Virus record (IMG/VR): IMGVR_UViG_2541047896_000001
Coordinates: 1 to 8,206 of that record
Source: a virus
Taxonomy: Monodnaviria; Loebvirae; Hofneiviricota; Faserviricetes; Tubulavirales; Inoviridae
Strand: one strand, 5' to 3'
Length of the DNA stretch: 8,206 nucleotides
This document shows, in pieces, positions 6,126 through 8,206 of this stretch (its first letter is position 1; every line of letters begins with the position of its first letter). A program made the translations under genes and the position numbers. The notes beneath the pieces were generated by a model. It had not been told where the DNA came from and did not search any database. It saw only the letters and a list, made by a program, of their open reading frames with translations.

Positions 6126-6310
6126 AACATAAACCAAGGAAGAATCCAGTCGTTGGCGGTCATGATTGTCGTGCTCATTAATAACGACCAAACCCCATAT
6201 TAACTGCCGCATCAAAAACGCCATGATCCGCGCGATGCCTGGGCCTCCATCTGATTCATGAAAGTGACAACGGTCTGGCATAACGGCTGGCTAACCACTC
6301 CGGTGCATAC

Positions 6311-8206
6311 TTAAAGGTGTGCGCGCCGTTGGCTAACTTCGTTAAGTTCGCCGGTCACGTTTTTTAGCGTTAACAGACCGTCACTAGCAATATTTCCTCT
6401 GCCTAACCCCTGCGTATTGTCGAGGCTGACTTCCGCATTTGGGCTAATGCTGGTTAACGCATTGTAGCGTGCATTAAGCCCCTCGATAGCCAGTGTTCCC
6501 CCTGTAACATTCAGGTTTCCGCCACCTGTCAGTTCGCCCTGACTGATCCCACCTTTATTCACCGTCAGCGAACCTTCTTTGAACAAAACAGTCGAACCCA
6601 TCAGCCCGGTGAATGTCTCCACCGTCTGGGCCGATCCATTAAGATCGACGATGGCCGCGTTGCTGATGTTCAGTTCCCGGGTGTTGCCCAGCGCGCCATC
6701 CGCATCGGTACGTAATGTCCCCATCTGAACATAGGTTGCCCCCTGATAGTCGTTCTGACCGTTGGAAAGCGAAACCTGTCGCACCGTATTGATTGCCAGA
6801 TCCCCTTCACCACCGATTTTTGCCGACATATCGGCCGTTGCGCCATAGGCTCCGCCATGTTCGGCTAACGTCAGCTTTTGCCCTCCATGGATGTTCAGCG
6901 CTTTCAGCCCATAGTTAACGTACAAACCATCACCTGGTGCGGTCGTGAGGCGGAATCCATAATCACCCTCGGCGACCACCGTTCCGTTTTGCGCAATGTG
7001 TAACGTTTTGTCCGCTTCCACCTCGTCGCCCTGTAAATCACGTAACGTTAATGAGCCACCCGACCCAATAACCGTTTGCGCCTTCACCAGTTGAACGCCG
7101 ACATGGCTATCATCGTGTTCCAGCAAATTGAGCGTCGTCAGAGGGTTATTCGCCATGGGATCATTCCACGGTTTAGGCACGTCGATAAGCACGTCGCCCG
7201 TCCCGTTTACCTGATAGTTACGGCCTTTCCAGGTGTAGTCACCCGCGCCGACAACCAGCGTATCGACGCTGATATATCCCTCTGCAAGCGTCGCAGCAGG
7301 AATATCCGTATCGAAAATGAGCGTACCGCCATTCATGGCCAGTCCACCAATGGATTGCTCTCCCACTTTTACCGATGTGGTATTTTCACTGTCAGACTGC
7401 AACATCGCGTGAGTAAGCGCAGCGGTGTTGTCGCGTTCCAGAGTGAAGGTACTGTCTTTCAGTTGGGCAACACCGGCGAATTCAGTCCCTGTTGCATGGG
7501 TAAAGCCAAATATCTTGTCGGAGGATGACAGCTGCACTCGCATCAAGCCATCGCCTTTGAGCGCATTGGTCAGCGTGTAATCTCCTGCGCTGTTCGTTGA
7601 TGCGAGAATGTCGAGCGTACCGGGGCTTGCAATGGTGACTTCACTCGAACCCATGCCTGTTACCCCATCTGCCGTATGTGACGCAATAGTCAGGAGGCCG
7701 TCATTGACCAGCGTTTTACCGCTATAAGTATTCCCTGCATTGAACACCGTATGGCCTGCATCATGCATCACTTTTCCGTCTTTATCGTCACCCGTAATCA
7801 GCATATCGACCTGGTAGCCGGCATCACTGTTATTGGTATGATTAAAGACAAAAACGCCTTCGCCAAGACCAAACTCCACTTTCGTCGCATTGGTAATAAA
7901 CCCGGCATCTGCCGCCACCTCACCGTGAGCAGCACCAATGTTTAGCGTTCCTACAGCAGGCTCAAAAACACCTAAGTAAACTTCTCCACCTTCGACATTC
8001 AGCGTGCCGTTATTCGTCAGGGTTAACGTACCTGTGCCAGTCGTCCCTACGTTCATATTGAATGTTTCAAGAAGAGAGTTCTGCCCATCCACCCGCACGT
8101 CGCCCTTACTTTTGTCATTCAGAGCTATCTGTGTATCACGCGCTTTAACTATACCTCCGGTGGTAATATTCAGTTCACCCGTACCTAATACACCGACCTG
8201 TAGCAA
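6311..8206 (-). CDS. Autotransporter (type Va, AIDA-I/pertactin-like) passenger-domain protein, 5' end outside the window; possibly a truncated gene or pseudogene
   Basis: Open minus-strand frame from the window edge to TAA at 6313-6311, 631 aa in window. Gly/Thr/Asn/Leu-rich degenerate repeats typical of beta-helical passenger domains (for example GTLTLTNNGTLNVEGGEVYLG, GGNLNVTGGTLAIEGLNARYNALT). It ends ...EVSQRRAHL with no beta-barrel translocator domain and no terminal aromatic residue. Higher GC than the prophage. Confidence 0.65.
   Translation of the reverse strand: MLQVGVLGTGELNITTGGIVKARDTQIALNDKSKGDVRVDGQNSLLETFNMNVGTTGTGTLTLTNNGTLNVEGGEVYLGVFEPAVGTLNIGAAHGEVAADAGFITNATKVEFGLGEGVFVFNHTNNSDAGYQVDMLITGDDKDGKVMHDAGHTVFNAGNTYSGKTLVNDGLLTIASHTADGVTGMGSSEVTIASPGTLDILASTNSAGDYTLTNALKGDGLMRVQLSSSDKIFGFTHATGTEFAGVAQLKDSTFTLERDNTAALTHAMLQSDSENTTSVKVGEQSIGGLAMNGGTLIFDTDIPAATLAEGYISVDTLVVGAGDYTWKGRNYQVNGTGDVLIDVPKPWNDPMANNPLTTLNLLEHDDSHVGVQLVKAQTVIGSGGSLTLRDLQGDEVEADKTLHIAQNGTVVAEGDYGFRLTTAPGDGLYVNYGLKALNIHGGQKLTLAEHGGAYGATADMSAKIGGEGDLAINTVRQVSLSNGQNDYQGATYVQMGTLRTDADGALGNTRELNISNAAIVDLNGSAQTVETFTGLMGSTVLFKEGSLTVNKGGISQGELTGGGNLNVTGGTLAIEGLNARYNALTSISPNAEVSLDNTQGLGRGNIASDGLLTLKNVTGELNEVSQRRAHL

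Follow-up and report, generated by a model that had tools for sequence, protein, structure and literature searches.

Autotransporters of type Va reach the cell surface by means of their own C-terminal beta-barrel and normally also depend on an autochaperone. In Escherichia coli, one gene of this kind, yneO (ydeK/ydeU, b4696), is annotated as a pseudogene in strain K-12, where it lies beside hipBA and dif. The usual gene order is lsrK - yneO - hipB - hipA - dif, and K-12 follows it, with dif (positions 4751-4778 of our K-12 locus, L003), hipA, hipB, the yneO pseudogene and lsrK in succession. E. coli SE11 has an intact copy (WP_001443608.1, 1806 aa), which comprises an ESPR signal (residues 1-47), a long passenger, an AC_1 domain (1332-1438) in an autochaperone/pertactin-like region (PF18883 and PF03212; 1332-1452) and an Autotransporter beta-domain (1525-1784), and which ends in ...KYSW. 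As judged from these predicted domains, this architecture is canonical type Va. In the literature on yneO, ydeK and ydeU we found table entries (AIDA-I family or putative autotransporter) and no dedicated study; for instance, one gene table has the entry “AIDA-I family autotransporter YneO” (PMC10782963). Here we analyze an 8,206-nucleotide stretch of DNA (“the window”; IMG/VR virus record IMGVR_UViG_2541047896_000001), in which an inovirus prophage at dif adjoins chromosomal DNA, and in particular the minus-strand open reading frame (ORF) at 6311-8206, which resembles an autotransporter passenger with no barrel. We conclude with high confidence that this ORF is a decaying, non-functional deletion remnant of yneO and that the prophage was not involved in its truncation. 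That yneO is a catalogued pseudogene is already known.

Results

The ORF comprises 631 codons, is open throughout and reaches the edge of the window at 8206; its stop codon is TAA at 6313-6311. The TTG at 8204-8206 looks like a start only because the window ends there; it is the first whole codon in the window and corresponds to residue 555 of the full-length protein. The identity of the gene came from a full-length NCBIfam model, NF011422 (“ECSE_1600 family autotransporter”, 1806 positions), and not from Pfam. NF011422 matches the ORF with E = 0 and 1390 bits, aligning ORF residues 1-623 with profile positions 555-1177. This score falls short of the 2335 bits set as the cut-off for full-length matches, since the ORF covers only about one third of the protein and of the profile. 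The type V secretion system (T5SS) repeat models TIGR04393 and TIGR02601 also match, while Pfam run on the ORF alone returned only a weak, sub-threshold PATR passenger repeat. By BLASTP, the ORF is 97% identical to residues 555-1175 of the SE11 protein without insertions or deletions, and the retained DNA (window 6345-8206; K-12 L003 8564-10425) matches K-12 yneO ungapped at 97.3% by blastn. The yneO/ECSE_1600-family passenger fragment thus delimited (6346-8206, minus strand) is internal, spanning codons 555-1175 of 1806 before it runs off the window at 8206. On this homology, the ORF is what is left of the middle of yneO, a chromosomal AIDA-I-type (type Va) autotransporter gene. The preliminary description of this DNA had mentioned, as uncertain, a degraded adhesin locus near dif in E. 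coli, and yneO is that locus.

As that description also stated, the ORF stops at 6311 and encodes no beta-barrel: Pfam finds neither the Autotransporter domain (PF03797) nor an autochaperone domain in it. The ORF ends in ...RRAHL, a non-aromatic C-terminus, so that both the barrel and the aromatic end of a type Va protein are missing, and the autochaperone/pertactin-like junction domain (PF18883, PF03212) is missing as well. One suggestion had been that the protein is not a classical autotransporter. We reject this because the intact SE11 orthologue carries the ESPR signal, the autochaperone and the beta-barrel.

To locate the missing 3' end, we mapped deletions by blastn against K-12 and strain VL46 and by a three-way alignment of the junctions. 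Relative to K-12 there are three deletions, two of 472 bp and 668 bp inside hipA and a third of 2431 bp (L003 6133-8563). With the third went the whole of hipB and the intergenic region between it and yneO, together with 45 nt from the start of hipA and 1898 bp from the end of yneO (K-12 1592665-1594562); at its junction, window position 6345 (J3), codon 1175 of yneO abuts hipA nt 46. The 631 codons lost from the end of yneO encode the remaining passenger, the autochaperone domain, a linker and a 12-stranded beta-barrel, and when the K-12 DNA absent here is translated with its frame repaired, the result contains an AC_1/pertactin domain and a complete PF03797 barrel. The ORF therefore has no barrel because the DNA coding for the barrel has been deleted. 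At J3 the two sides share 1 nt of microhomology, with an imperfect TCGCC nearby where both genes encode G-E-L. We considered a microhomology-driven deletion and set it aside, as only 1 nt is shared; we treat the event as illegitimate recombination.

After Leu1175 of yneO, the ORF continues for ten codons, NEVSQRRAHL, to the TAA stop (6311-6344, minus strand); this DNA is the 5' part of hipA, matching it from nt 46 (0-based index, frame offset 1) and read one base off the hipA frame. Passenger-type repeats had been described as extending to the last residues. The passenger character is borne out, and it is only these final ten residues that have to be excepted as out-of-frame hipA. By blastn and tblastn, the missing C-terminal segment of yneO is found neither in the window, including its 6.1 kb of prophage, nor in the 26 kb surrounding the locus in strain SCU-172. 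The gene is thus shorter than its intact orthologue, is joined out of frame to unrelated DNA and has no compensating segment nearby, and the proposal of a truncated or pseudogenised adhesin in the terminus region is upheld in the form of a yneO remnant with its 3' end deleted.

The same deletions account for the 185 bp between the ORF and the XerC arm of dif (6126-6310), a length that was reported exactly. What had been taken for a plain spacer is in fact dif-hipA intergenic DNA followed by hipA relics that had gone unrecognised. Positions 6126-6200 are native chromosomal DNA running from dif to the hipA stop codon and lie within a match of window 6112-6200 to K-12 L003 4765-4853 (95.5%, blastn). 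Next to it, on the minus strand, are a first relic at 6207-6259 (hipA nt 800-852, approximately codons 267-284), flanked by the 472-bp and 668-bp deletions, and a second at 6260-6345 (hipA nt 46-131, approximately codons 16-44), which matches hipA of K-12 and VL46 at 98.8-100%. Of the type II toxin-antitoxin pair hipBA, hipB is entirely deleted and the 1323-bp hipA is reduced to pieces of 53 bp and 86 bp; with window 6207-6345 standing in for K-12 L003 4855-6443, the hipBA persistence module has been lost from the strain. The same two internal hipA deletions occur in MS 21-1 and in two further genomes, all of which nevertheless keep hipB and have yneO degraded differently. This distribution of the deletions suggests that hipA was already inactive when the third deletion removed hipB. 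Inactivation of the toxin before loss of the antitoxin is the order expected for a toxin-antitoxin pair.

We surveyed 5426 complete E. coli genomes for this allele with a junction-specific query (window 6195-6420). Only three matched it end to end, SCU-172, MSB1_4I and OZ547117, all at 100%, and in each the identity is also 100% over the whole of 6112-8206, all three deletion junctions included. In all three, PGAP annotates the gene as a pseudogene, “incomplete; missing N-terminus and C-terminus” (HPE50_RS12210 in SCU-172). An IS4 is inserted approximately 70-140 bp beyond the position of the window edge in all three genomes, and the ESPR-bearing 5' part is a separate 534-aa ORF severed by it. 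Insertion sequence (IS) copies in these genomes also interrupt the ydeT usher and a fimbrial gene in addition to yneO, and lsrK is frameshifted; the terminus region of SCU-172 (L001 5120-17200) is rich in such elements, with two IS4, one IS2 and one IS1. The three genomes differ from the window at dif, which is unoccupied in them and holds the inovirus prophage here. In SCU-172 a perfect 28-bp dif stands at the position of the window's hybrid site, and the usual yneL/ydeT side adjoins it. The combination of prophage junction and deletion allele was found in no complete E. coli genome, and an exact look-up of a 57-aa ORF spanning the junction (6108-6281) gave no match. The preliminary description had proposed a comparison with prophage-free relatives, and the outcome is that those with the same allele are likewise without a barrel, while typical E. 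coli have one, with hipBA between it and dif.

Across the survey, the 3' segment of yneO missing here is kept at 80% or more in 3968 of the 5426 genomes and is wholly absent in 1115. The gene is frameshifted in K-12 and G3/10 and truncated in M19 and VL46, and E. coli 042 carries a yneO-hipA fusion (EC042_RS27120/27820). To map such fusions, we placed 120 listed homologues (P0001-P0120) on yneO, HipA and LsrK. These show in-frame fusions at no fewer than 10 distinct yneO-HipA junctions and no fewer than 12 distinct LsrK-yneO junctions, as well as several internal yneO deletions. In one homologue, P0093, the reading frame runs on from yneO into what remains of hipB and from there into full-length hipA. 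Four database proteins have the same NEVSQRRAHL tail as the window ORF together with four different further deletions upstream, including fusions to LsrK and to a mannitol dehydrogenase.

The right prophage junction is a hybrid dif (6098-6125, minus strand), to which K-12 dif maps. Its XerC arm at 6115-6125 (TTATGCGCACC on the plus strand) is chromosomal. Homology to the chromosome starts at 6112, so that the XerC arm and part of the central region are bacterial and the XerD-arm side is derived from the phage. No full dif within 3 mismatches is present in the window, and SCU-172, K-12 and SE11 have an intact dif in the corresponding position. A second dif-like site lies at 6032-6059 on the plus strand (AATGCGCATAA TGACGT TATGCTAAAGA), inverted with respect to the hybrid dif, and a GC-rich hairpin followed by a T-run (6060-6095) is located between the two. 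In layout, this inverted pair (6032-6125) is similar to the dif-like attP sites, likewise paired and inverted, of phages that integrate by means of XerCD. The 3' phage end, from approximately 6036, is common to different inoviruses at dif in VL46 and in the mouse strains M6-M19, and a perfect dif is present at the far (left) prophage end in loci L009 and L011-L014.

The prophage itself (window 1-6111; loci L009-L016) is an inovirus and encodes a Zot-like pI (1-1035), a DUF2523 protein (1039-1326), an attachment protein (1337-3220), a coat protein (3285-3533) and a G2P_X_C replication protein (4139-5254). The deposited phage collection has no close relative of it and gave only a 64-bp match, to an intergenic region of If1. 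In the assembly collection, 310 indexed blocks contain an ORF identical to the 88-aa phage ORF at 5759-6025. Among the 24 contigs read for this ORF, the 8 places shown have differing flanking genes, that is, unrelated chromosomal contexts, often with 2-3 tandem copies; the window's own chromosomal context is absent among these eight.

Discussion

Based on the deletion map, we propose the following course of events. Two internal deletions would first have gutted hipA. The 2431-bp deletion would then have joined hipA nt 46 to yneO codon 1175 out of frame, so that translation would continue for ten codons into hipA DNA and stop. A product with no translocator domain would not be expected to insert into the outer membrane or to export its passenger, and in the closest relatives the product would have no signal peptide either. 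The filamentous prophage integrated at dif later or independently. We infer the loss of function from domain content. In pairwise comparisons with SE11 and K-12, the retained part has a dN/dS of 0.10-0.13, as expected for a formerly functional and recently inactivated gene.

Some observations weigh against this account. Neither a stop codon nor a frameshift interrupts the 621 yneO codons in the window, which are thus still open, and a truncated polypeptide could be made given an upstream promoter and start codon. In addition, the IS4 interruption is known from SCU-172, MSB1_4I and OZ547117 and is extended from them to the window, which ends at 8206. These open codons and the low dN/dS relative to intact alleles would also fit a functional barrel-less protein, passenger-like and exported by another route or with a barrel supplied in trans. 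We regard such a protein as very improbable. Low dN/dS reflects the history that the fragment shares with intact alleles, and the C-terminus consists of ten residues of out-of-frame hipA. The autochaperone required for passenger folding has been lost along with the barrel, and IS4 separates the fragment from the ESPR signal peptide in all three carriers of the allele, which is rare (3 of 5426 genomes). Furthermore, there is no family of homologues of the same length, as the matches are all fragments or fusions of yneO, each of them different. Since the proteins with the NEVSQRRAHL tail show four different further deletions, the remnant is evidently not being maintained by selection.

An alternative cause of the truncation is the prophage, whose integration at dif could have cut the autotransporter gene or moved its 3' end to the far side of the prophage. 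The preliminary description hinted at such a link, and the ORF does end only 185 bp from the prophage junction. However, the break is at 6345 and not at dif, and native dif-flanking DNA and hipA relics lie in between. The identical allele stands beside an intact, unoccupied dif in SCU-172 and the two other genomes, and therefore the prophage did not cause the truncation. An inovirus at dif is also compatible with a full-length hipA, because VL46, which has one, keeps hipBA, and in PEC148, which shares the window's phage end, the match covers hipA. The search for the missing segment across the prophage returned nothing from the 6.1 kb in the window, the left junction lying beyond it. Integration by XerCD is conservative, and flanking DNA is not deleted. 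Taken together, a role of the prophage is extremely improbable. Finally, that the truncation is an artefact of assembly or sequencing is hardly credible, since nothing specific speaks for it beyond the capacity of an internally repetitive passenger to confuse assemblers, and the junction is identical base for base in three independently sequenced complete genomes, and several proteins, taken from NCBI and Logan assemblies, carry the same tail.

A decaying deletion remnant of yneO thus means that an anomalous-looking autotransporter with no barrel is explained by a catalogued pseudogene and that the truncation owes nothing to the nearby prophage. In annotation, the proper labels are pseudogene fragment for 6311-8206 and hipA relics for 6207-6345, and the strain should be regarded as one without the hipBA persistence module. 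The sole wider point concerns the interval itself. Judging from the many distinct junctions, the dif-proximal lsrK-yneO-hipBA interval appears to have been eroded in many independent events in E. coli. It is conceivable, if on balance unlikely, that this terminus-proximal interval is a true deletion hotspot of which the window allele is one example. The driver of such a hotspot might be selection to shed hipA, forcing co-deletion or prior inactivation of the toxin, or terminus-specific recombination near dif. Alternatively, the recurrent losses may represent neutral decay sampled over very many E. coli assemblies.

Besides the identical allele of SCU-172, MSB1_4I and OZ547117, two known forms of the gene are close comparisons for the window allele. 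The first is K-12 yneO, the same gene at the same chromosomal position and likewise a pseudogene. K-12 has a frameshift near codon 1404 and keeps all of its DNA, whereas in the window allele the last 631 codons are physically deleted; unlike K-12, the window allele has also lost hipB and the start of hipA, and its ORF ends in DNA derived from hipA. The second comprises the yneO-hipA fusions of 042 and of UMEA 3174-1 (“protein hipA”, P0011), from which the yneO 3' end, hipB and the hipA 5' end are also gone. These fusions are independent deletions with endpoints unlike those of the window, and many of this type are in frame and give passenger-HipA chimeric ORFs, whereas the window junction is out of frame.
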